Shown here piece by piece: positions 2,155-64,000 of a DNA stretch of 64,000 nt. This DNA is from Clostridia bacterium. Its GTDB lineage: Bacteria > Bacillota > Clostridia > CAKSNL01 > HGM11501. Location: positions 19,467-83,466 of the forward strand of contig JAZQAZ010000044.1 of NCBI GenBank assembly GCA_045545475.1, read 5' to 3'. The notes beneath the pieces were generated by a model, which made no database searches, was not told the DNA's origin, and saw only the letters and a list, made by a program, of their open reading frames with translations. The first letter of the stretch is position 1; each line of letters starts with the position of its first letter. The position numbers and the translations under genes are program-made.

Positions 2155-2886
2155 TTATTCAGCATTTAATACAGCACAGCAAGAGTCAAAGCCAAAATCC
2201 GGGGTTGAAACCCTTTTTACATTTCCCAAGCTGTCTTTTACTTCAATTTCTTTTCCGTTCCAATACAACATTGAAGTCTTACGGCCATCAGGACTTCTGT
2301 AATTCAATGCCGCTACCGGTTTATCCTTATCAGCTCTGTATAAAGTGATGCCTGTATTTTTAAGATAATCGTACTCAATTGCCGCACGTTCGGTGGGCGT
2401 AAACTCTTCTTCAGGCAAATATCTGAAACACAGAGGCGGAGTTTCTTCGTCATACATAACGTCGATTTCAACCAATCTGTGTTCTCTTATCATATTTCCC
2501 AGATAAACGGATTTTGAAATATTCACACTGACCTTACCATTTTCACTCTGATATGCAACAACAGCAAAACCTTCTTCACATTCAATGGGAATAATGTCAT
2601 CGTAAACGGGATATATAAACTGAATAAATCCCATACTCATAAATCCCCACTTGCCATTTTCCGTCAATCTGTATTTATAACCCAAAAGCGTGTTTTCCTT
2701 ATCGCATGACCTAATTTCTCTTACGTCATACATTACTTTTACTGTTTCGTTGTTGCATTCAAAATAAAAAGGCTCACTGTTTTCATCAGTCAGAAAATAT
2801 TTACCTTCTTCTCCACATACAAAAAGCCATTTGATGCATTCCGTTTTTCCGCTTTTCTCTTTCAAATATTTATCAAAACCAGGCAT
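2155..2886 (-). CDS. hypothetical protein with one WG-repeat-like motif
   Basis: 243-aa ORF with RBS AAAGGAG and its own promoter; contains ENGKWGF...PVYDDI. Confidence 0.6.
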   Translation of the reverse strand: MPGFDKYLKEKSGKTECIKWLFVCGEEGKYFLTDENSEPFYFECNNETVKVMYDVREIRSCDKENTLLGYKYRLTENGKWGFMSMGFIQFIYPVYDDIIPIECEEGFAVVAYQSENGKVSVNISKSVYLGNMIREHRLVEIDVMYDEETPPLCFRYLPEEEFTPTERAAIEYDYLKNTGITLYRADKDKPVAALNYRSPDGRKTSMLYWNGKEIEVKDSLGNVKRVSTPDFGFDSCCAVLNAE

Positions 2887-2937
2887 ATATCATAGCTCCT
2901 TTTCTCACAGTTCTGCTTTATAACAAAAACTGTTTTT

Positions 2938-2966
2938 AGTATACCACATATATTTGCTCATTTCAA
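2938..2966 (-). promoter_or_regulatory. sigma-A-like promoter
   Basis: Minus strand TTGAAA-17 bp-TATACT with an extended TG. Confidence 0.55.
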
Positions 2967-2967
2967 G

Positions 2968-2998
2968 AAAAAGAGCGGGAAATTCCCGCTCTTTTTTT
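2968..2998. terminator. intrinsic terminator downstream of the QueG-like pair
   Basis: Hairpin AAAAAGAGCGGGA-AAT-TCCCGCTCTTTTT. Confidence 0.8.
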
Positions 2999-4106
2999 AC
3001 TTTTTCTTATACTCGTTTTCCCTTATACCGGGATATTTTTCGTCAAGATATTTTTCTCTGTAGGGGTTTACGCCGTCTGACACAGATTCCGGCTTATTTG
3101 AAAGAAGCCAGCTTTCCTTTTTGTAAAACTTATTCTTAAAGGTATTTTCAATTCTGCCCGTTTTTTCAAGGGCATCCATGCAGGCACGGATGCATCCCCT
3201 TGCACCGCAGATTGCAAAATATCCGGTATGCCCCAATATATAGTTATAGTATTCCATAACCGCATTGGTTTCAGGCTTTCTTCCCCATTTTGCCCCCGCC
3301 AGGGAATAGCTTAAAATATACGCCTCTTCCTCTGTCATATCGGAGTTTCTCACGTCGAACGCCATATTGGGAAATTCCTTTTTAAGGAAGGGCGAACATT
3401 CATTGTTAAGTCCGTGATGCGAAAGGGTACAACGCCCCATCTGAACATCGCCGTACCACACCTTTTTTTCGCCGTAGTCAACTTCGATTCTCTTTTCCTT
3501 GTCCTTAAGGGACGGAACGGCATTACCGGGGCACATTTTAACGCAGGCACCGCAATGAAGGCATATATCGCCCGTGTCTAAAATCGGATCGGGCGTAAGT
3601 TCACAATCGGTAAAAATCAGTCCGATTCTTACGCGGGGACCGAATTTCTTTGTAAGAAATACCTTGGAATAGCCTATTTCACCAAGACCGCAGCCTGCCG
3701 CAATAAGCCTTACGGAGCAAACCACATCGGCGGGAACCTTTCCTTCCGCCACAGGCTCTCTCGTTACGCCGTTACCCTCCGGCACCGCAGGATAGTGAAG
3801 TGCCGCCTCATAGCCGTTGTCCTCAATAAAGCAGGCAAGTTCATAACTCTTTTTCGGGCGGAAAAGGGAATTTAATTTGTTATAGGAATAAAAGGTGTAG
3901 TTATGCCAGTGTGTACCTTCTTCAATACCTCTGTATGTACCTCTCGGGATTCGCATTGCAATGGCAATAACCGACTTTGCACCGGGAAAATAGGTTTCGG
4001 GAGACATAAGCTTCGGAGCATTTTTAAATCGTTCGATGTTTCCGATGGCTATGCAGTCAATACCAAGCTCTTTTGCCTTTTCCTTAATCATTTCGCTTGT
4101 AAGCAT
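2997..4106 (-). CDS. QueG/reductive-dehalogenase-like 2x[4Fe-4S] protein (probably cobalamin-binding)
   Basis: AAGCGLGEIGYS, KFGPRVR, IFTD, CLHCGACVKMCPG and C...CGARGCIRAC. Start MLTSEMIK at 4106, coupled to the upstream stop codon. Confidence 0.75.
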   Translation of the reverse strand: MLTSEMIKEKAKELGIDCIAIGNIERFKNAPKLMSPETYFPGAKSVIAIAMRIPRGTYRGIEEGTHWHNYTFYSYNKLNSLFRPKKSYELACFIEDNGYEAALHYPAVPEGNGVTREPVAEGKVPADVVCSVRLIAAGCGLGEIGYSKVFLTKKFGPRVRIGLIFTDCELTPDPILDTGDICLHCGACVKMCPGNAVPSLKDKEKRIEVDYGEKKVWYGDVQMGRCTLSHHGLNNECSPFLKKEFPNMAFDVRNSDMTEEEAYILSYSLAGAKWGRKPETNAVMEYYNYILGHTGYFAICGARGCIRACMDALEKTGRIENTFKNKFYKKESWLLSNKPESVSDGVNPYREKYLDEKYPGIRENEYKKK

Positions 4107-4107
4107 A

Positions 4108-5022
4108 TCAGTGGCCTCTCTTTCCGTCCTTTGAAAAGGCACCGCCAAGAACATTTGCAGAATCGGTATCCCTCGCTTTGGATTTACCTTCTTCGCCTAT
4201 CGCCCAGGCATCACGCTGTCTGAAAGGATTGTCAAAGAGATTACCGACAAGCCCCACTTCCTCCAAATGGCACATACAAGTTCTGTTGCAAAGTGCCGCT
4301 ACTCTGTCGGGTGCACCTGCCGACGTAAATCTGTTGGGAATTGCACCATTTTTGCATATTTTGCATTTTTCATAATCAATAACGGCAATTTCCATCTTTT
4401 TACCGCAGATTTCGACGGTTTTAGTTTCCGTTTTACTGATAGCTCCCAGGGGGCAGGAATCCGCACACTTTCTGCACTTGTCGCACACACTTCTTTCAAG
4501 AAGAGGAGTTGAGGGAATTTCCGCATCGGTTATTATCATATGAAATCTCTGGCGTGAGCCGAATTTTTCCGAGAAAACCATTCCGCTGTAGGAAAGCTCG
4601 CAAAGTCCCGTTGCAACAGCCGCATAGGCAAAGTCGGGAAATACGTTGGGTGCAACTCTTCCCTCGGCAACGGAAACACCTGTTGGTGCTATCTCCGAAG
4701 GATTGGGGAAAACGGGCACTGCCTCATAGCCGTTATCCTCAAGTACGTTGGTAAGGTTATAGCAGGCGATTGCCAAAAACTCATCCTCAAGCCAGTTTTT
4801 GCCGAAAAGTGCATAGTCGCTGAAGTTTGTTCCTTCCTCCACGCCACGAAGCGAGCCGCGGCAGATTCTCTTTCCCAGCATAATTACGGTTTTACCCTCG
4901 GGGAAAATGGAAAACGGGTTATGCTCTGCCTCTACCCCTTCAAATCTTTCTTTTCCCGCAAAGCCTATTAAATCAATACCTTCCTTTTTAACGGCTTCTT
5001 CAATTATTTCTTTAAGTTCCAT
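4108..5022 (-). CDS. QueG/reductive-dehalogenase-like 2x[4Fe-4S] protein
   Basis: AAVATGL, KFGSRQRF, IITD, CDKCRKCADSCPLG and CKIC...CNRTC. Confidence 0.75.
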   Translation of the reverse strand: MELKEIIEEAVKKEGIDLIGFAGKERFEGVEAEHNPFSIFPEGKTVIMLGKRICRGSLRGVEEGTNFSDYALFGKNWLEDEFLAIACYNLTNVLEDNGYEAVPVFPNPSEIAPTGVSVAEGRVAPNVFPDFAYAAVATGLCELSYSGMVFSEKFGSRQRFHMIITDAEIPSTPLLERSVCDKCRKCADSCPLGAISKTETKTVEICGKKMEIAVIDYEKCKICKNGAIPNRFTSAGAPDRVAALCNRTCMCHLEEVGLVGNLFDNPFRQRDAWAIGEEGKSKARDTDSANVLGGAFSKDGKRGH

Positions 5023-12414: not shown

Positions 12415-14365
12415 CTTCGATTTCACTCCGTATTCTCATAAGCTTATCACGGATTTTAGCCGCATCTTCAAATCGAAGCTGGCTTGCAGCCTCCTTCATT
12501 TCAGCTTCAAGCTGCTCCAAAATTTCCTTACCCGACCTTGCTTTGCCCTTTTTCTTTTCTTCCTTTTCCAGAACCTTTATAACCTCACGCACTGACTTAG
12601 ATACGGTCTTTGGAGTTATGCCGTGTTCCTTATTAAAGTCGGACTGAATTTTTCTTCTTCGCTCAGTTTCGTCAATGGCATATTTCATAGCGTCGGTTAT
12701 TCTGTCGGCATACATTATTACCTTGCCTTCGGCATTTCTTGCTGCACGGCCAATGGTCTGAATAAGGGATGTTCCGCTTCTGAGGAAGCCTTCCTTATCG
12801 GCATCAAGTATGGCAATCAGCGAAACCTCGGGAAGGTCAAGACCTTCTCTGAGTAAGTTTATTCCCACAAGTACGTCGAAAACTCCAAGACGCAAATCTC
12901 TTATAATTTCCATACGCTCTAACGTTTCAACCTCGCTGTGCATATAGCGGACGCGGATTCCAAGGCTTTGCATATGATCGGTAAGTGCCTCTGCCATTTT
13001 CTTGGTAAGGGTTGTAACAAGCACCCTTTCCCCTTTTTCGGTACGGATATTAACCTCGCTCACAAGGTCATCAATCTGCCCTTCTGTGGGACGGACGAAA
13101 ATTTCAGGATCAAGAAGCCCCGTAGGTCGTATAACCTGCTCTGCAACTTTGGAAGAATTATCATATTCATACTGTGCAGGTGTCGCAGAAACGAACAATA
13201 CCTGATTCAATCTCTCTTCAAACTCTTTAAATGTCAAAGGACGGTTATCGTAAGCACTGGGAAGGCGGAAGCCATATTCCACCAGATTATCCTTTCGTGA
13301 ACGGTCCCCCGCATACATCGCCCTGACCTGTGGAATTGTAACGTGTGATTCGTCAATAACAAGCAAAAAGTCCTTCGGAAAATAATCAATTAAAGTATAA
13401 GGTGCACTACCCTCACTTCTTCCGCTAATGTGACGGGAATAGTTTTCTATACCTTGACAAAAACCCACTTCTTTAAGCATTTCTATATCGTAGTCAGTCC
13501 TCTGCTTAAGTCGCTGTGCCTCTAAAAGTTTACCTTCCGATTCAAAATATTTAAGTCTGTCAGCAAGTTCTCTTTCAATGCCGGATATAGCACGAAGGAG
13601 CTTGTCCTTATTTGTTACATAATGCGATGCAGGATAAATTGCCACGTGATTTCTTGTGCCTAAAACTTCTCCGGTAACGGTGTTTATTTCACATATTCTG
13701 TCAATTTCGTCATCAAAAAATTCAATTCTTATTGCCTTTTCATTTTCGCTTGAAGGGAAAACCTCAAGCACATCTCCATGGGCACGGAACTTATTTCTCG
13801 TAAAGTTTATATCGTTCCTCTCATACTGCATCTCAACAAGCTTTTTTATTATCTCGTCTCTTTCCATAACCATACCGGGGCGAAGGGATATAACCATCCC
13901 CTGATAGTCCTCCGGGTCACCGAGGCCGTAAATACAGGAAACGCTGGCAACAACAATTACGTCTCTCCGCTCAAAAAGTGCCATTGTCGCACTGTGTCGA
14001 AGCTTGTCAATGTCATCATTTATAGAGGCATCCTTTTCTATATAGGTATCGCTCTGAGGCACATAGGCCTCGGGCTGATAATAGTCGTAATAGGACACGA
14101 AAAACTCAACGGCATTGTCCGGAAAAAATTCCTTGAACTCGGAGCAAAGCTGTGCCGCCAGGGTTTTATTGTGAGCCAGCACCAATGTCGGCTTATTCAC
14201 TTTTTCTATTACCTTGGCAACGGTGTACGTTTTACCCGAGCCCGTTACGCCCAGCAAAATCTGACCTTTTTCGCCGTTTTCAATACCTTCGGCTAATTTT
14301 TCTATTGCCTGTCCCTGGTCTCCCGCAGGATTGAATTTTGAACGCAAAATAAACTTATCCGGCAT
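12404..14365 (-). CDS. uvrB: excinuclease ABC subunit B
   Basis: [31 protein letters not shown]-terminal UVR domain. Confidence 0.98.
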
Positions 14366-56342: not shown

Positions 56343-57158
56343 ATGGTAAAAATGCATATGCAAAAATCTGTAACAGATACTATAAATACATCCTTTATAA
56401 TAGAAAGCGAAAAAGGCTTACTGGTTGTTGACGGCGGCTTTGCCACAGAATGCGAAAACCTTTATGCAAAATTAAAAGAACTCGGCGGTCATGTTACCGG
56501 CTGGTTTTTAACCCATCCCCATACAGACCACGTAAACTGTCTTCGCGAAATGATTAAAACCCACTCAGGCGATATAAAGATAGATATGCTTTACTATAAC
56601 TTCCCGTCCGTTGAGCTTATGAATGAAAATATCCCGGATGGAAACGAAAACGGTGACTGGCTTCAGGGCTTTTACAATGATATTGCACCTGCCGCCATCC
56701 CCGTTACAACCACACATATGGGCGACGAATATTCCTTCGGAGATGTTACGGTTAAGGTTTTAAGGGAGCATAATGATTCTACTCCCAACAACTTCAGCAA
56801 TAATTCCAGTACAGTTTTCCGCTTTGAAACCGAAAACTCAAGTGTTATCTTCTTAGGTGATTTAGGAATCGAAGGCGGCGAGCATTTACTTTCCGTAGCT
56901 AGCCCTGAGCTTCTTAAAGCCGACTACTGCCAGATGGCACATCACGGTCAGTCAGGCGTTCTTAAAAACGTTTACGAAGCGATAAATCCCGATTACTGCC
57001 TATGGTGCACACCCACCTGGCTCTGGGACAATAAAGGCCCCGGCGGATATGATACCGGCAAATACAAAACCGTTATCGTCCGTGGCTGGATGAGCGAAAT
57101 CGGAGGTATGAAAAAGCATTACATAATGCAGGAAGGTCCTTTTGAAATAGATCTTTAA
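56343..57158 (+). CDS. metallo-beta-lactamase-fold hydrolase (ComEC-like)
   Basis: VDGG, THPHTDH, NNSS, FLGD, AHHG. Confidence 0.85.
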   Translation: MVKMHMQKSVTDTINTSFIIESEKGLLVVDGGFATECENLYAKLKELGGHVTGWFLTHPHTDHVNCLREMIKTHSGDIKIDMLYYNFPSVELMNENIPDGNENGDWLQGFYNDIAPAAIPVTTTHMGDEYSFGDVTVKVLREHNDSTPNNFSNNSSTVFRFETENSSVIFLGDLGIEGGEHLLSVASPELLKADYCQMAHHGQSGVLKNVYEAINPDYCLWCTPTWLWDNKGPGGYDTGKYKTVIVRGWMSEIGGMKKHYIMQEGPFEIDL

Positions 57159-57164
57159 AATATA

Positions 57165-57198
57165 AAAAAGCATCGAAGCGAAAACTTCGATGCTTTTT
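57165..57198. terminator. bidirectional terminator
   Basis: AAAAAGCATCGAAG-CGAAAA-CTTCGATGCTTTTT. Confidence 0.85.
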
Positions 57199-57199
57199 A

Positions 57200-57724
57200 T
57201 TATTTATATCTAGGATCGGGGCCGTATTTGTTTTCTCCTGCCTGAGGTTCAAGTGCACAAAGAACTAAAACTACTATCATTCCTACCTCTGGAATTAAAG
57301 AGAGCAAATAAAACCATCCGCTTTTCCCGGTATCGTGAAGCCTTCTGATATGAAGGGCAATACGGGGAATCATAGTCGAAAGTACATATAAAAATGCCAA
57401 AAGAGCAACAAGCATTCCTGCAATTCCTATTCCGTCGCTTTCAAGGGCTAATGCCAGTGAAAGCATAACTATATAGATAACTCCGAAGATCACTGCAATT
57501 ATAAAATCCATAAGATATGCATACCAGAATTCACTCCTGGAGCTTCTTCCGCCAAACTCAGAATATCTTTTAAGCATCTCCATATAAGCTGTAAACAGAT
57601 TGAATTTTCTAGGTGTAGCCGTCCCCCCTGAATCTCCCCCATTCTCAATAATATCCTGTCCGCAATACGGGCATACCGCCAGACCTTTCTCCACATCTCT
57701 TCCGCATTTTGTACAATAACTCAT
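57200..57724 (-). CDS. DUF805 (YhaH-like) membrane protein with N-terminal zinc ribbon
   Basis: CTKCG...CPYCG; F.GRSSRSEFW, RRLHDTGKSGW, NKYGPDP. Confidence 0.88.
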   Translation of the reverse strand: MSYCTKCGRDVEKGLAVCPYCGQDIIENGGDSGGTATPRKFNLFTAYMEMLKRYSEFGGRSSRSEFWYAYLMDFIIAVIFGVIYIVMLSLALALESDGIGIAGMLVALLAFLYVLSTMIPRIALHIRRLHDTGKSGWFYLLSLIPEVGMIVVLVLCALEPQAGENKYGPDPRYK

Positions 57725-57743
57725 TATACACACTCCCTTTCCT

Positions 57744-58775
57744 CTATTTTTTAGCCCAGCGCATTTTGGTGGATTTTGCTCTGGGATTTCTGAAGCATTC
57801 TTCTCCCGATGGACGTATTACATCCTCGGAAATTTCGGAAAATACGCCTTCTTTCAGGTACTTCTTAAATGCCTTTTTCACCAGGCGGTCTTCTCCCGAA
57901 TGGAAAGTTAAAACCGCAACTCTTCCCTTATCACTCATAACCGAAGGGAGTTTTTCAAGGAAGGAATAAAGCACTTCAAACTCGGAATTAACATCTATAC
58001 GAAGTGCCTGAAATGTCCTTTGACAACTCTTTTTAACCGCCTCTTCCCTTTCTTTTTTAGGAAGGAAGGAAAGAGCCTTTTCAATTATTTTTCTAAGGTC
58101 GGTGGTTGTTTCAATACTTCCGCCCAAAGAATATGTTTTAATTATTTCTTCCGCAATTTCTTCAGCATAAGGCTCGTCGGAATTTTCAATAAGCATGCCG
58201 ATTATTTCATCCTCCGAAAGTTCGGAGAGCCTCTCCGCCGCACTGACTCCGCTACTTTGGTCAAGCCTTAAATCAAGAGGCCCGTCTATTTTATAGGAAA
58301 AGCCTCGTTCGGGATTGTCTATCTGCATAGATGATACGCCAAGGTCTGCCAATATAAAGTCAAACTTCTCCCCGTCAGACACCTTGTCGATTTCGGCAAA
58401 GTTCATATTCTTAATTGTAAGAATTTCTTCTCCGTAGCCTTTTTCGAAAAGCCGTGCTTTTGTTTTGGCCGATTCTTCCCTGTCAACATCTGTAGCATAC
58501 ATTCTTCCCTGCCCTTTAAGACACTCCATCATTTTTTCCGTATGGCCGCCATAGCCCAACGTTGCATCGTATCCTGTTTCTCCAGGTTCTATTTTAAGAA
58601 AATCGAGAATCTCATCAACCATTATGGATATGTGCATTCCCGCAGGAGTTTTTCCCTTGCTGATGATTTTTTCAATATCATCCTTGTATTTTTCAGGCTG
58701 ATGCTCTTTATATTTTTCAGAAAACTTTTTCGGGTGTGTTCCTTTATATCGCACTCTTCTTTTATGTTCTTCCAT
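57744..58775 (-). CDS. rsmH: RsmH/MraW-family methyltransferase, N-terminally extended paralogue
   Basis: DATLGYGGH, DLGVSSMQID...RGFS, FQALRI.VN.E, FHSGEDR.VK, NPRA.S.K.R. Confidence 0.8.
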   Translation of the reverse strand: MEEHKRRVRYKGTHPKKFSEKYKEHQPEKYKDDIEKIISKGKTPAGMHISIMVDEILDFLKIEPGETGYDATLGYGGHTEKMMECLKGQGRMYATDVDREESAKTKARLFEKGYGEEILTIKNMNFAEIDKVSDGEKFDFILADLGVSSMQIDNPERGFSYKIDGPLDLRLDQSSGVSAAERLSELSEDEIIGMLIENSDEPYAEEIAEEIIKTYSLGGSIETTTDLRKIIEKALSFLPKKEREEAVKKSCQRTFQALRIDVNSEFEVLYSFLEKLPSVMSDKGRVAVLTFHSGEDRLVKKAFKKYLKEGVFSEISEDVIRPSGEECFRNPRAKSTKMRWAKK

Positions 58776-58798
58776 CTGTTTACCCCCTTTCATAAAGA

Positions 58799-61700
58799 TT
58801 AAAACATAACCGTACTTTTATAAGGATAGGTTTCAGTATATATTTCAACTCCGCCGGCAAGCTCATTTATACCTGTAATTTTCCCGTCCCATTTTCTCGC
58901 TTCTTCTATACTCATTTTTTCCTCATCAAAAACAATTACTGAATTAAGCATATAGGAGACAAGAAAAAGTTTTCTTTCCTTCCTTATAAGTTTGCTTGCC
59001 AAATCATTTTTGCTTTTCACAAAGCTTGAAAAAAGAGAGTTTCCTTTTTCAAATTCTGTTTTCACAACCATATCAAAATCACAGTAGTCGTTTTCAAGTA
59101 TTTTTCCGTTCAATTTAAAAATCCCGTTATCAAGCACAAGCGTGTCATTCCCGTTCCTGTACACCGCTTTGTATTTTCCGGCATAGTCGAAATCAGAATA
59201 AGCGTAGCACATAAACCTTTCAGCAAGATAAGCCCCACTTAAGCACGGATATAAAAATCCTTCATACTCTTCGGTACGATATTTTTCATTTCTGATTTTA
59301 TTATATTTATGCTTGATTTTTTTGTCAACAGTAAATTCAAAGCGACCTTCCTTTACAAAAGCAATCTTACCATCCTCTGTAAATTCCACCTGCTTCGGAG
59401 GATTGCCTCCAAAGCCAAACTTTGATATAACCTTTCCTTTTTCGACGTCAACTATTATAATTCCATCGGTTTTAAGAATATATAAAAATTTGGAATCTTT
59501 TGAAAATTCACTGTCAATTATTGCATCAAAAACCGAAAATTCAAGATGCTTCAGCGAAAACAGCTCCTCACCTTTTCCGTCATACACCCTGATTTTTCCT
59601 GTTCCCTCATTTGCAAGCATAACATGCGAATCATTTGAAAACGCCATAAATGTTACATCTTTCAAATATTCTTCATATAGTTCGCAATACTTGGCCATGT
59701 CGTACCTGAAAAAGGAGTTATTCTTCCTGAAAAGTGTACGAAAACTTTCACGTTTTATATCAGGTACCAAATTCGTCTTGAACATATGAAGCATAAATCC
59801 TATCATCATTTCCCTGCTTGCCTCAACTGTATTGGAAGAAAGATAAAGCTTTTCACGAAGCGGTAAAAAATCATTTTCCGTCACTTTTTTCATTTCTGTC
59901 GCCGTAATCACCAATAAAGCTTCGGCGTTTCCTATACAATATGCATTACTTATTTCAGGAATATTTATATACGAAAGAGATAAATCTTTCATATCGGCTT
60001 TTATTATAGTGTTTTCATATACAGCAACAATACAATTACCGTATTTGATAAATCGTTTTATCTCAGAAGTCTCCGGGAAATACATATACTTTTTCTTTCC
60101 GCCGGATAAAAGCCTCAATTCCGTGTTGTAAGAGTTATAGATTCCCACTACGATTCCCTTGTCAAACAGGCACACGCTTTCCTCTTCTCCCAGATAAGGA
60201 TAACGGAAGGATTCAGTTTTTATAATCGCTCCGCTTTTTAAGTCATACCTATTTGCCTTAGAGTTTTTCATAAGCCAGAGAATTTCATCTTCATTCTCAT
60301 TTATATCGAAAAACTTTGTTCCCAAGCCACTAATCGCATACACTATTTCATACGTTTCCATATCTATGGCGGTCAGCTTATTTTTTCTTATGACCAAAAG
60401 ATAATTATACTCAGATGAGTATTTCACAGTCTCTGTCTCATTTATATTTTTTATCTTATTTTCAAACTTTGGGATATCTCCGCTAAGATCGTAAACGTGT
60501 ATTTCTTCGTTGTCGAGAACAATCGCAAGCCTGTCATCTCTTGTCCATACCAGGCTTATGATATTTTCTTTCATTATGTAATCAAGTAAATCCATATGGA
60601 TGGATTGAAAATATCTATAGGTATTTTCTCTGTAAATGTAAATATATTCATCACGTATTACGGCATACTTCTCCCCATTACATGACAAAAAGATTTCATC
60701 TTTTACATCAAAGTTCATGCGTTCTCCCTTTATCGGCAAGTTTTTAAGCACGCCTCCTTCAAGAGTAAGACCGTAGCCGTATGCACAGCTGAATAATCCG
60801 TTTTTATAGCAGTCCAGAGTTCCAGAATTATTTCTGACACATTCAAAAAGTTTTTTCCCTTTTATTCCAAGAAGACCTTTTTCGTCAAGCTCCGCATAGC
60901 AGTCGCAAAGTTCCGTAAGATTGCCTGATTTTATCAGAGCATCTGCAAACGAAACATCAGACACAATATCTTCAAGTTCTTTATACATGCTTTTTTTCTT
61001 GAGCAAAGATATTATCGGCATAAGCTTTTTGATGTTCGGATAACCGTCCTTTGATATATAGTTATCCATCGCATCATAATACCTTATAAGATTGTTCTCC
61101 GCAGAAACGCAGTTTTCCTTAAATTCATTCAGCACAACTTTTCTGAATATATTATGGCTAAAGCTTATAATGATGCTGTCCTTAGCCATGCTGTGATGAA
61201 TGCATTCCTTAAGGTCATATAAAAGTCTTGATAAAATCGCAAAAGGAAGTTTCTTAAGTTTATAGTTATACCTGTCTTCTTTAGCAAAACTCTCTTCTAT
61301 TTCCTTGTGTGTAAAAAGAAGTGTAAGAAGGTCGTCCTCAGTAATTCCGAACGGTGCTACTGCGATATAAGAAAGCACATATCGCACCACATTCTCATCG
61401 TGTCCGCAATTTCTGAACATATCAAATATATGAATTTTCGCCATTTCATAATCGTCAAAAACAAAATTTTCCACATAATCTCCCGAGTGCCATCCTGCAG
61501 CCAGGTCCGAAAGCAGCTTACATGATAACGGATTTGCTCCGTTTGAAAGACAGTCTTCTACCAGTGCCTTCTGTCCTTCCGATATAAGCGTTCTTCCTCT
61601 GCTTGACAGCATTTTATAAAAGCTGTCAGCTGCATCCTCCTTTGAAAAACCGGTTATATGATATTCCGTATCATTTATTTGTTTAAACTTTTCCACTATT

Positions 61701-63097
61701 TTTTCATCGGCAGAAGACACAATGATTTTAACGTCTTTCATTAATTCATCGGGGAACACGTTTACATTAACCTCTCCGATATCATAAAACATGTCCATTC
61801 CATCAATCACGATAACAGTTTTGCTGTAAGCAGGCGTTTTCCCCATTGCTTCTGAAAACATTTCAGATATATTATAGCGGTTAATTTCTTCACTTAAGGA
61901 TATATCATACTCCTCCGTAATCATAATGCAAAGCTTTTTCAAACAGTCATAAAAATTATATATATCATTTTCTCCGAATAAAACATAAAAAACGTCTACA
62001 GACTTTTTATCCATAAACCTTTTGGTTGCAGCCCACGCTTCTTTAAGGGACTCTTTATCTTTTGCTTCCTTCAGTTCTGCTTCATATTCCTTATTCGGAT
62101 CATACTCTCTGTAAAAATTAATAAACTCTTTAAGAAGTGTGGTTTTTCCGCTTCCTGACTCTCCTTTAAGAAAGTAAACTCCCCTGTCATCTCCTTCAAC
62201 GTAGTTTTTAAGCCTATTAATATCTTCCTGACGTCCGCAAAACATACCCTCAGGTAATTTCCCGGGAATGTACTCTTCTTTCAGTCCATCCAATCTTTCA
62301 AATTCACTTAAAATATTTTTAATTAAGAGTTCTGTAACTCTTTGTTCCATCAATTCATAATATTCATCATTAAAATCCAGAGTTATTATGTTTTCCGAAA
62401 GATTGTCCTCCTCCATTTTTTCCCTTATTCTTCTTTTAAGCTCGCAAGTCCTTGTCATATCCCGGTCCTTTTCCGGGTATCCCTCTCTCATAAGAACGAT
62501 TACATTGTCTGCAATGTCTTCATTTCCAAAAAGACCTTTTAATATTTCGTGTTCCGTTGCCGACGCTTCATATTTTACCAATTCCTCTTTTTTTAATGAA
62601 CACTCTTTTGCTCTCTTTTCCAGTATTGCATGAAGCTTTTCTTCTTCACTATACCAGATATTATCGTCCACATATTCCCCGCTTCTCCTATTTAAATAGT
62701 AAACCTTGGGAATGTTGTTTTCATCAAGCAAATACCACTTATAAAGCAATTTTTTTTCTTCATCCCGGCACAAAGCAATTATTTTTTCAAATTCTGTCGC
62801 CTCTACTACCGAAGGAAGCGGAACCCATCCGTATCTGTCACCTGCCATAATAAGAAAGTTTGGTTTCGGAGAATTGCTCATGCAGTAATTTATCTCATCA
62901 AGGCAAATTTCAAGTGTATTCTGATTCAGTGCCGACTCCGTGTTTATTCCCCATCTCAAGTCGACAATCTGAAATCCGCATCCTCTTCTCTTTAAAAGTG
63001 CACTTACCTTTTCAAATATTTCATTATTTAATATAGCTCGTTCTTTTATAAAATCGCTGAATGTGGAGCTTACAAAAAGACGGAATGTATTATTCAT
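58799..63097 (-). CDS. DUF4062-STAND NTPase-beta-propeller protein (NWD1/TEP1-like architecture)
   Basis: RLFVSSTFSDF..ER, VDLRWG, CLDEI..C, GDRYGW, SATEHEI; Walker A GESGSGKTT; Walker B IVIDGMD; GANPL; FSH; beta-rich repeat C-terminus. Confidence 0.75.
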   Translation of the reverse strand: MNNTFRLFVSSTFSDFIKERAILNNEIFEKVSALLKRRGCGFQIVDLRWGINTESALNQNTLEICLDEINYCMSNSPKPNFLIMAGDRYGWVPLPSVVEATEFEKIIALCRDEEKKLLYKWYLLDENNIPKVYYLNRRSGEYVDDNIWYSEEEKLHAILEKRAKECSLKKEELVKYEASATEHEILKGLFGNEDIADNVIVLMREGYPEKDRDMTRTCELKRRIREKMEEDNLSENIITLDFNDEYYELMEQRVTELLIKNILSEFERLDGLKEEYIPGKLPEGMFCGRQEDINRLKNYVEGDDRGVYFLKGESGSGKTTLLKEFINFYREYDPNKEYEAELKEAKDKESLKEAWAATKRFMDKKSVDVFYVLFGENDIYNFYDCLKKLCIMITEEYDISLSEEINRYNISEMFSEAMGKTPAYSKTVIVIDGMDMFYDIGEVNVNVFPDELMKDVKIIVSSADEKIVEKFKQINDTEYHITGFSKEDAADSFYKMLSSRGRTLISEGQKALVEDCLSNGANPLSCKLLSDLAAGWHSGDYVENFVFDDYEMAKIHIFDMFRNCGHDENVVRYVLSYIAVAPFGITEDDLLTLLFTHKEIEESFAKEDRYNYKLKKLPFAILSRLLYDLKECIHHSMAKDSIIISFSHNIFRKVVLNEFKENCVSAENNLIRYYDAMDNYISKDGYPNIKKLMPIISLLKKKSMYKELEDIVSDVSFADALIKSGNLTELCDCYAELDEKGLLGIKGKKLFECVRNNSGTLDCYKNGLFSCAYGYGLTLEGGVLKNLPIKGERMNFDVKDEIFLSCNGEKYAVIRDEYIYIYRENTYRYFQSIHMDLLDYIMKENIISLVWTRDDRLAIVLDNEEIHVYDLSGDIPKFENKIKNINETETVKYSSEYNYLLVIRKNKLTAIDMETYEIVYAISGLGTKFFDINENEDEILWLMKNSKANRYDLKSGAIIKTESFRYPYLGEEESVCLFDKGIVVGIYNSYNTELRLLSGGKKKYMYFPETSEIKRFIKYGNCIVAVYENTIIKADMKDLSLSYINIPEISNAYCIGNAEALLVITATEMKKVTENDFLPLREKLYLSSNTVEASREMMIGFMLHMFKTNLVPDIKRESFRTLFRKNNSFFRYDMAKYCELYEEYLKDVTFMAFSNDSHVMLANEGTGKIRVYDGKGEELFSLKHLEFSVFDAIIDSEFSKDSKFLYILKTDGIIIVDVEKGKVISKFGFGGNPPKQVEFTEDGKIAFVKEGRFEFTVDKKIKHKYNKIRNEKYRTEEYEGFLYPCLSGAYLAERFMCYAYSDFDYAGKYKAVYRNGNDTLVLDNGIFKLNGKILENDYCDFDMVVKTEFEKGNSLFSSFVKSKNDLASKLIRKERKLFLVSYMLNSVIVFDEEKMSIEEARKWDGKITGINELAGGVEIYTETYPYKSTVMF

Positions 63098-63100
63098 AGC

Positions 63101-63556
63101 TTAATCCTCAATTTTATATTTTTTTCTTATTCTAAGGAGCGTGCGTTTTAATCCCAGTTTCCCTGTGACAATGATTAATGTAATACATAATATAATCGCA
63201 ATTATAATTCCGATTACAATAATCAATGCCGGAAAAGTGAAAAATAAAAGCAACAACGGTATCCATAAATTCGTAACATAAAAATTCTCCATAACCCAAA
63301 TCACCGCTACTGCATCGGTCATAACCCAAAGCATTATAATAGGAACCGTTAAAAAAAGCGTAACTCTTTTTTTCTTTTCCGTGAAAGGTTTTTCCCCACT
63401 TTTCAGTATTCCGGAAAATTTGCCGTTGTAATTTATATATTCAGAAGAGCGTGTCCTGTAAATAAGATTTTCAATTACAGCAACAAAAACGCATACAACG
63501 GCAGTGATTATCATAAGAAGCCCAAAAAGCTCCCACAAAGATATTCGCAAGTTCAT
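63101..63556 (-). CDS. hypothetical membrane protein (about 3 TM helices)
   Basis: Hydrophobic segments; RBS AAAGGGTG before ATG 63556; ends 3 bp before the STAND gene start. Confidence 0.6.
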   Translation of the reverse strand: MNLRISLWELFGLLMIITAVVCVFVAVIENLIYRTRSSEYINYNGKFSGILKSGEKPFTEKKKRVTLFLTVPIIMLWVMTDAVAVIWVMENFYVTNLWIPLLLLFFTFPALIIVIGIIIAIILCITLIIVTGKLGLKRTLLRIRKKYKIED

Positions 63557-63674
63557 ACAATACACCCTTTTTAATGTCATTTGTTTTATTATAGCAGAAG
63601 TTTCACGGATGCACAAGACAAAAATAAAACCGCCGTTCGGCGGTACTTCTCAGGGAGAAGCCGGTTTTGGCTTG

Positions 63675-63744
63675 TTATTTTCCGCTGATAGTGCGCAAAA
63701 AAACGCAGACATACGCCAGTATGACTGCGTTTTTTAACTTCTCT
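63675..63744. repeat. dispersed palindromic (REP-like) repeat, copy 2
   Basis: Aligns with 14485-14555; hairpin AAAAAACGCAGACATAC-GCCA-GTATGACTGCGTTTTTT. Confidence 0.75.
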
Positions 63745-63770
63745 AAGGCGAAAAATTCCTAACCCAAAAC

Positions 63771-63983
63771 TGCGAATACGATAAAAATTTTCTTAAGCCC
63801 ATAAAGGGCGTGAAAATTTTTGAGTAAAAACAACAGACTCGATGTCGTTGTTTTTTCTCATGCACCACAAAATTCTCGATTTTGAGTGCAGGACTATGAG
63901 AAAAAACTGTGCCCATCGAGGGCAAGTTTTTTGCTCGGAAATTTTCACGGCATATTAAGATGCCTAAGAAAATTTCCTTCGCA
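63771..63983. repeat. nested imperfect inverted repeat of about 210 bp (REPIN/BIME-like)
   Basis: Mirrored blocks TGCGAA/TTCGCA, AAATTTTCTTA/TAAGAAAATTT, GTGAAAATTT/AAATTTTCAC, CTCGATG/CATCGAG, GTTTTTTCTCAT/ATGAGAAAAAAC. Confidence 0.8.
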
Positions 63984-64000
63984 TAGGAAAAAAGCCGAAG

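Follow-up and report, generated by a model that had tools for sequence, protein, structure and literature searches.

The closest described relatives of the system reported here are bacterial defence proteins carrying a DUF4062 domain, which Le Mouellic et al. (10.64898/2026.09.04.749371) renamed NIR. According to that preprint, an Avs2, Vulcan and Vesta defend against phage and deplete NAD+ in a glutamate-dependent manner, and the TEP1 domain is an NADase whose activity is abolished by mutation of E1008; Swarozyc and TEP1 were described by Osinski et al. (10.64898/2026.05.01.722283) and Evangelion by Ibarra-Chavez et al. (10.64898/2026.06.25.731849). Across these 2026 preprints, the NIR of PsAvs2, Vulcan, Vesta, Swarozyc and TEP1 depletes or hydrolyses NAD+ in dependence on a glutamate, which is E108 in PsAvs2, E97 in KpSwz and E1008 in TEP1. 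In Swarozyc, Evangelion, Vulcan and Vesta the domain either is fused directly to an auxiliary region or has a phosphatase as its partner, and NIR heads are also mentioned on "other NLR-like proteins" in anti-phage systems (10.64898/2026.09.04.749371). Bacterial Apaf-1-like STAND proteins with WD40 sensors have been reported as well (Nature 2026, PMC13581612), and Kaur et al. 2021 (PMC8195603) list TIR and DRHyd heads on STAND proteins. Here we describe a gene pair from a Clostridia bacterium (assembly GCA_045545475.1), located near one end of a 64,000-nt stretch of contig JAZQAZ010000044.1 (positions 19,467 to 83,466; hereafter the window), that encodes an NLR-like protein with a NIR head and, directly upstream, a small membrane protein for which we find no published description. 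The pair and the parts of the NLR-like protein are as follows.

58799..63097, minus strand: NLR-like gene, 1432 amino acids, intact open reading frame (ORF), with NIR/DUF4062, STAND NTPase and tandem β-propellers
63101..63556, minus strand: membrane partner gene, 151 amino acids, from its ORF and ribosome-binding site
62282..63097, minus strand: NIR (DUF4062) TIR-like domain, residues 1 to ~272, from Pfam, the TEP1 match and the AlphaFold2 model
62546..62563, minus strand: SATEHE motif, residues 179–184, in which E184 is the candidate catalytic glutamate
62138..62164, minus strand: Walker A motif GESGSGKTT (K318), from alignments
62000..62107, minus strand: charged helical insert of 36 residues (331–366), from alignment and the AlphaFold2 model
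59837..60694, minus strand: first β-propeller, ~7 blades, residues ~802–1087, from the AlphaFold2 strand pattern and Foldseek
58802..59650, minus strand: second β-propeller, ~6 blades plus helical inserts, residues ~1150–1432, from AlphaFold2 and Foldseek

PsAvs2 and the other NIR-headed NLR-like proteins share with the window protein an N-terminal NIR with a conserved catalytic glutamate, a STAND NTPase and a C-terminal repeat sensor, and the expected output, NAD+ depletion and abortive infection, would be alike; the NLR itself is a new member of this receptor type, described in 2026. The window protein differs from PsAvs2 in that its sensor consists of two β-propellers rather than TPR-like repeats, its head contains an insert of ~65 residues, and its gene has a conserved membrane partner that goes unmentioned in the main text of 10.64898/2026.09.04.749371. 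None of the PADLOC profiles for the families Avs1–5 matches it, the sensor being a propeller and not the TPR-like array with which Avs proteins sense terminase or portal, and the NACHT family PF05729 that would mark a bNACHT stays below its cut-off of 26.7 with 23.5 bits, a match confined to residues 308–329. The Apaf-1-like STANDs have in common with it the NTPase and an Apaf-1-like propeller sensor, and Apaf-1 is among the best structural matches (Foldseek) of both halves of our protein, but their heads, as described in PMC13581612, are caspase-like or of other kinds, whereas here a NIR head and a membrane partner are found. With Swarozyc, Evangelion, Vulcan and Vesta the likeness is confined to the effector domain family and presumably its chemistry; those systems, as described, have no STAND, no propellers and other auxiliary parts.

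Kiwa (KwaA/KwaB) and Zorya combine a membrane component with a cytosolic effector. Both resemble the pair in that the membrane protein is encoded first and the cytosolic executor second, and in the idea of sensing or anchoring at the envelope; in PADLOC, however, the partner shows no sequence relation to either, and the executor of the present pair would be an NLR-like NADase.

The reading of the locus made earlier from its letters alone (the sequence-only reading) had named the protein animal NWD1/TEP1-like. This stands for the domain order, which is the DUF4062–NACHT–WD40 order of the eukaryotic NWD1, NWD2 and TEP1, and for the head, whose only solved sequence relative is TEP1; it is a likeness of layout and head and not a claim of orthology. 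The HTH_NWD1 match (16.8 bits, cut-off 27) and the NACHT match both stay below threshold, Pfam finds no TROVE match such as would be expected of TEP1, and the insert in the head is absent from TEP1. That reading had also failed to recognise the pair as a named system, which holds for the membrane partner, undescribed in the literature searched, and no longer for the NIR-headed NLR type, which the preprints describe.

The NLR-like protein and its NIR head

The proposed tripartite protein is confirmed by the ORF itself, Pfam, AlphaFold2 and Foldseek. Pfam places DUF4062 (PF13271) at residues 6–103 (32.7 bits against a cut-off of 24.7; 37.8 bits in the genome search) and an ATPase_2 P-loop domain at residues 286–360 (34.8 against 33.2), with matches to NACHT, NB-ARC, NPHP3_N, nSTAND, HTH_NWD1 and β-propeller families below cut-off only; NCBIfam gives no meaningful match. 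The motifs quoted in the sequence-only reading are all present, and in an alignment of the window protein with nine full-length relatives (28–51% identity) they are invariant in 10/10 sequences: FRLFxSSTFxDF, DLRWG, GxRYGW and S179-A-T-E182-x-E184 in the head, and Walker A K318, Walker B D432, the GxP-like G520..P523-L524 and F646-x-H648 in the STAND part. In a wider alignment of 23 sequences K318 and E184 remain invariant and E182 does not. The charged helical insert following Walker A, likewise noticed before, occupies residues 331–366 and was found only in the window protein, in the relative P0002 and in the copy of a second genome of the same genus (G002).

In a single-sequence search with residues 1–280, the sole solved relative is the human TEP1 DUF4062 domain (11gz_A, E 1.1e-8), which is also the top match of the family profile (E 5.7e-32). 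In the profile alignment SATEHE falls on the TEP1 segment SVTEMEV, so that E184 would be the counterpart of E1008 if the 220-residue chain of 11gz_A corresponds to residues 894–1113. The ~65-residue insert relative to TEP1 (residues ~100–178) follows the third strand, ahead of the catalytic helix, and is confidently modelled. The modelled head has five strands alternating with helices, in an order that fits the published TIR-like description of a parallel five-stranded sheet flanked by helices, the comparison being one of strand and helix order. A TIR-like, NAD-cleaving DUF4062, suggested by the sequence-only reading, has since been published for anti-phage systems and for TEP1; the idea of a NAD-cleaving effector is therefore no longer new but the published view of the domain, and from the conserved glutamate we infer NADase activity for the window protein.

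The AlphaFold2 model of residues 1–700 (pLDDT 86.2, pTM 0.81) has plant resistosome NLRs such as ZAR1 (1.8e-10), CED-4 (3.9e-9) and Apaf-1 (6.4e-9) among its best Foldseek matches, together with the TIR-NLR RPP1 and Avs3 (range 1.8e-10 to 3.4e-7), and fits a nucleotide-binding, helical and winged-helix domain fold followed by a repeat sensor. The model of residues 701–1432 is weaker (pLDDT 75, pTM 0.54); its strand pattern gives a helical stretch, the first propeller, a low-confidence linker (residues 1093–1145) and the second propeller, and the C-terminal ~630 residues match the Utp21 tandem WD domain (2.3e-15) and Apaf-1 (2.0e-13). What had been read as ~650 residues of divergent propeller-like repeats thus models as two β-propellers over ~630 residues. 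The sensor half evolves faster than the head half: identity to the G002 copy is 77% in the N-terminal and 60% in the C-terminal half, and identity to P0002 is 62% and 40%. The partner diverges faster still than the sensor half, with 47% identity to its G002 copy.

A membrane protein gene beside the NLR gene throughout a clade

Three nucleotides separate the partner's TAA from the ATG of the NLR gene, so that the gene with three transmembrane (TM) segments said to end 3 bp upstream is indeed there, and its linkage to the NLR gene, also proposed, is conserved across a clade. An alignment-based scan of 185,579 species genomes yielded 77 loci with DUF4062 relatives, which a single-protein search of genome contigs did not find. 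Five of the 77 are full-length relatives, from Lawsonibacter, Ruminococcus, Acutalibacteraceae, a Bacilli metagenome-assembled genome (MAG) and Coriobacteriales, and in each of these the NLR gene is directly preceded by a co-oriented gene for a polytopic membrane protein, at a gap of -8 to +13 nt. A metagenome scan, in which 80 of 178 loci were kept, added 10 full-length or near-full-length relatives, again all with an upstream membrane gene (one ends at a contig end and two are truncated). Counting loci below 80% NLR identity as separate lineages gives 11, and the partner abuts the NLR gene in 11/11, at -8 to +27 nt and down to 24–31% NLR identity; these counts cover the loci that pattern scans could find, and members without a partner may have been missed. 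By comparison, 14/60 other DUF4062-STAND loci have an abutting upstream ORF with at least two TM segments.

A quick maximum likelihood tree of the first 700 residues of 48 proteins, chosen from loci with long open frames, unites the 11 lineages with Faecalibacterium sp. An122 (L036) in a clade (Shimodaira–Hasegawa-like approximate likelihood ratio support 100), with the other 36 rows outside. L036, the sister lineage, has no abutting upstream gene; a 196-residue, 3-TM gene lies ~150 nt away on the opposite strand (L036:5258-5848, minus) and matches the profile of the partner core at TM1 and the adjoining motif (E 0.0015). A stand-alone RyR-domain gene (L036:10507-10866, plus; 104 bits) follows the L036 NLR gene at ~80 nt. 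The window genome (G000) has an unlinked 96-residue stand-alone RyR-domain gene of its own (L182, G000 C8:39871-40143; 127.9 bits), by eye much like that of L036 and followed by a gene for a 298-residue polytopic membrane protein.

The window partner has three hydrophobic segments, arranged as TM1, a 37-residue loop with 9 K/R, TM2, TM3 and a 20-residue tail with 8 K/R, a charge distribution from which we derive a topology with the N-terminus out and the loop and C-terminus in. It belongs to no family in Pfam, NCBIfam or PADLOC, finds no relative besides itself among 5.8 billion proteins, and in a protein-language search gives nothing above 0.84; the G002 copy (47% identity) keeps the identical 3-nt spacing to the NLR gene. 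In 8/11 lineages the partner is larger, at 381–434 residues, with an N-terminal signal-like segment, BspA-type leucine-rich repeats (LRR_5, 65–88 bits against a cut-off of 27.7 in Pfam) and a C-terminal 3-TM core, while no ectodomain is recognised in the partners of the window clade, Lawsonibacter (L025) and Coriobacteriales (L074). The cores have in common TM1, a juxtamembrane motif G(K/R)D..Y..Y, a conserved proline and two more TM segments, and end after the last of these in a basic tail R(I/V)RK. With a profile of 10 partner sequences the window partner ranks second of 7,852 genome ORFs (E 0.0056), collinear from TM1 to TM3. A membrane partner comes up neither in the main text of any of the three DUF4062 preprints nor in full-text literature searches, and we regard it as the new element here.

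The five contexts of the pair in relatives are all different, including transketolase/asparaginase and PNP/YmdB genes, and we conclude that the pair is what travels. The Lawsonibacter pair (L025:4094-5109, plus) comes directly after a phage-type holin gene (Pfam) and a gene judged by eye to encode a CHAP-type lysin, a position suggesting that it rides at a prophage end there. Four metagenome copies (L107, L108, L109, L110) are 92–97% identical to the NLR of L106 and frameshifted (2–3 frames); L107 and L108 share identical breaks and a truncated partner gene, and L109 additionally lacks ~150 residues. Such copies suggest that the gene is decaying in some populations, in keeping with its being dispensable, and a fitness cost behind the frameshifts is our conjecture.

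Three further arrangements were seen. In Coriobacteriales L074 an 898-residue protein with TIR and PQQ-propeller matches (2239-4935, plus) precedes the pair, and a microbial-type PARG gene (12860-13747, minus) lies ~2.6 kb downstream. Other DUF4062-STAND genes, in Bacteroidota and Campylobacterota, have the gene of a different membrane protein directly upstream (L043, L044, L050, L067, L070, L078, L080 and L086; L040 partial); this protein has 559–663 residues, 2–3 N-terminal TM segments, TrkA_N (RCK) and usually RyR, the former being present in 8/28 and the latter in 7/28 of the upstream proteins scanned, and it could act as a membrane partner gated by nucleotides. The third arrangement is from Gemmatimonadota and a single Eubacteriales MAG (L045, L060, L064, L076), where a separate WD40-only protein precedes a shorter DUF4062-STAND gene, as if the sensor had been split off into its own gene.

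Accessory distribution, insertion site and neighbouring genes

The distribution of the pair is patchy. The NLR gene occurs in 2/14 family genomes, G000 and the 75%-complete G002, in which it is split over two small contigs, and the sensor profile detects it in 2/400 sampled class genomes, G000 counted. A HMMER search with the sensor half against 1.84 billion cluster representatives gave 73 matches, 36 of them at E <=1e-10, and most of the strong matches are 1420–1465 residues long and so of the same architecture. All holders found are animal-gut metagenomes, and no RNA run is among the sequencing-run holders listed. The block that had looked AT-rich by eye has a GC content of 35.3% over 4.8 kb, compared with a genome value of 40.8%, and falls in the bottom 1.3% of 2,536 windows of that size.

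The following features flank the pair.

63588..63616, minus strand: probable operon promoter, TTGTGC, 17 nt, TGcTATAAT (extended -10), read from sequence
63629..63644, minus strand: terminator hairpin of the upstream glycoside hydrolase gene, which marks the ancestral intergenic region
57744..58775, minus strand: second rsmH paralogue, the downstream neighbour (TIGR00006, 228 bits)

Three same-genus genomes without the pair keep the downstream rsmH paralogue (93–95% protein identity), and in them it is directly preceded by a GH2 glycosidase gene, the terminator and the promoter. In G000 the membrane gene takes the paralogue's place behind that terminator and promoter, and the genomes become alike again from the paralogue's ATG onwards; given these matching flanks, the pair was inserted exactly between the promoter and the paralogue's ATG. 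The GH2–RecA side lies in G000 at the end of another contig (C14). Contigs from two gut-metagenome runs of different studies (X1, X2) cover 58126–63644 and contain, past 63644, a 19-nt core of the reverse-complement GH2 3' end (by eye, over 30 letters); no contig joint skipping the pair was seen in 4 sequencing runs. On these comparisons the pair is accessory and, to all appearances, horizontally acquired.

The promoter at 63588..63616 was not listed by a consensus promoter scan, which missed it on account of its weak -35 element. The coding strand from 63629 to 57198 contains no terminator-like site, and the partner, the NLR gene, the rsmH paralogue and a DUF805 gene therefore look like one transcription unit. 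The last of these encodes a zinc-ribbon-DUF805 membrane protein and comes directly after the rsmH paralogue (57200-58775, minus strand). The paralogue is divergent, the canonical rsmH (371 bits) being on C14, and together with the DUF805 gene it is found in 4/14 family genomes, unrelated to the NLR pair; its membership in the module was rejected, as it occurs without the pair in three relatives at 93–95% identity. A perfect sigma-70 consensus (TTGACA, 17 nt, TATAAT; 12/12) at 59300-59328 on the minus strand, inside the 3' end of the NLR gene, stands ~500 nt upstream of the paralogue, and could either restore expression of the displaced downstream genes or be a chance occurrence in AT-rich DNA.

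The palindromic repeats reported at the border are also present, as 5 inverted-repeat pairs within 63698-63984. The repeats at 63645-64000 belong to a multi-copy family, also located at the end of C14 and at least 15 other contig ends, which is modular, ~110–160 nt, hairpin-rich, resembles miniature inverted-repeat transposable elements (MITE) or repetitive extragenic palindromes (REP), and interrupts the assembly here. In the window genome they sit beside the GH2 terminator hairpin, where X1 and X2 have none. That they are the ends of an inserted element was rejected, since they are upstream of the conserved promoter and absent in X1 and X2. Rfam has no match in window positions 57000-64000.

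The rest of the window is housekeeping in character (uvrAB, a polysaccharide cluster, spoVA, glycosidases). PADLOC, run on the other 48 window ORFs, reports only UvrA, UvrB, a histidine kinase and a metallo-β-lactamase-fold protein, matches that reflect the homology of housekeeping proteins to defence ATPases and nucleases; the defence-island association considered in the sequence-only reading thus did not materialise.

Proposed mechanism, alternatives and implications

We think it fairly probable that the pair is a mobile two-gene abortive-infection module, in which an NLR-like NADase is tethered to, or regulated by, its membrane partner. By analogy with Apaf-1 and Avs, and with the NIR biochemistry taken from the papers, the two β-propellers and an ADP-bound STAND NTPase would hold the NLR monomeric at rest; an invader-derived ligand would bind the propellers and lead to nucleotide exchange and oligomerisation, and the clustered NIR heads would become active NADases, depleting NAD+ so that the infected cell is starved or stopped. 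The 3-TM protein would be an obligate partner that uses its conserved juxtamembrane loop and its basic tail to tether or control the NLR on the cytoplasmic side of the membrane, a role we favour because these most conserved parts are cytosolic; in most relatives it would additionally bear a surface LRR domain. The trigger, oligomerisation, a defence phenotype and physical contact with the partner are what we infer, and the interpretation given in the sequence-only reading is partly supported.

Several results weigh against this proposal. No defence island surrounds the pair in the window, PADLOC (2023) reports for the NLR only PDC-M16A (20.3 bits, on the P-loop) and no Avs family, and a viral contig scan with 64 pattern matches returned 0 relatives. 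NAD+ hydrolysis might, instead of depleting the cofactor, produce a signal. As to the partner, its match to the 10-sequence profile has a high composition bias, a 5-sequence profile against the same 7,852 ORFs gives a best E of 0.08 and leaves the window partner outside the top 15, and hhalign of the window partner with the relatives' cores gives 5.9% probability. The basic C-terminal tail may in part reflect the Shine-Dalgarno sequence of the next gene, an explanation weakened by the L036 partner, which keeps the basic tail without overlapping an NLR ribosome-binding site. All told, homology of the window partner to the 3-TM cores of its relatives is moderately supported by the sequence comparisons.

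The partner could alternatively be the executioner, or a second one: a holin-like 3-TM permeabiliser gated by the activated NLR or by ADP-ribose, with NAD+ cleavage serving as a signal or a parallel hit. Its topology (N-out, C-in) and basic tail resemble those of class I holins, other DUF4062-STAND genes are preceded by TrkA_N/RyR membrane proteins that are possible ligand-gated effectors, and the stand-alone RyR gene of L036 comes right after the NLR gene. We nevertheless judge this unlikely, since Pfam, NCBIfam and PADLOC find no nucleotide-binding domain in the partner, the 37-residue cytosolic loop and the LRR ectodomain of 8/11 lineages are unlike holins, and the protein-language search stayed at or below 0.84. 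Less likely again, and to our minds quite doubtful, is a bacterial "split Toll-like" pathway, in which a 3-TM transducer with a surface LRR ectodomain would detect events at the envelope (a phage that adsorbs or injects, or a foreign surface molecule) and signal through the conserved cytosolic loop to the NLR NADase, the window copy being a trimmed version that keeps the transducer core alone.

That the NLR acts alone, with the membrane gene a co-travelling neighbour of no consequence for its function, would agree with the single-gene nature of the NIR-bearing Avs2, Vulcan, Swarozyc and Evangelion and with the weak sequence homology among partners. It is hard to reconcile with adjacency in 11/11 lineages down to 24–31% NLR identity and across five unrelated contexts, with gaps of 3 nt or overlapping stop and start codons, with the persistence of the partner in the other orientation in L036, and with the 14/60 other DUF4062-STAND loci that have an abutting upstream ORF with two or more TM segments, and we hold it to be very unlikely. 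We give the least credence of all to a role outside phage defence, where an NLR-like switch would set off death or signalling in some other conflict or in response to a developmental cue, for example cell contact, gut host ligands perceived through the LRR ectodomain or a sporulation-linked cell fate. In the Pfam description the BspA-type LRR domain is mostly an adhesin-type module of the cell surface, the window has no defence island and the holders all come from animal guts; yet the DUF4062 systems tested so far are, in the preprints, all anti-phage, and the sporadic distribution, low GC, frameshift decay and neighbouring phage-type holin/lysin and TIR genes fit defence cargo. The membrane-tethered or membrane-regulated NLR-like NADase is thus the reading we retain.

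Known bacterial NLR-like receptors have been described as soluble, self-contained cytoplasmic sensors of phage proteins. Given a clade of NLRs invariably encoded beside a polytopic membrane protein, in most cases one with LRRs on the cell surface, certain bacterial NLRs may act at the membrane or, alternatively, receive extracellular input; the split Toll-like pathway, if true, would be a case of outside-in immune signalling in bacteria, with the logic of Toll-like receptors and NLRs combined in one operon. The head domain is common to human TEP1, NWD1 and NWD2, whose functions are poorly understood, and studies of how TEP1-, NWD1- and NWD2-type proteins are restrained and activated could profit from a bacterial relative that is tractable and has a defined partner.

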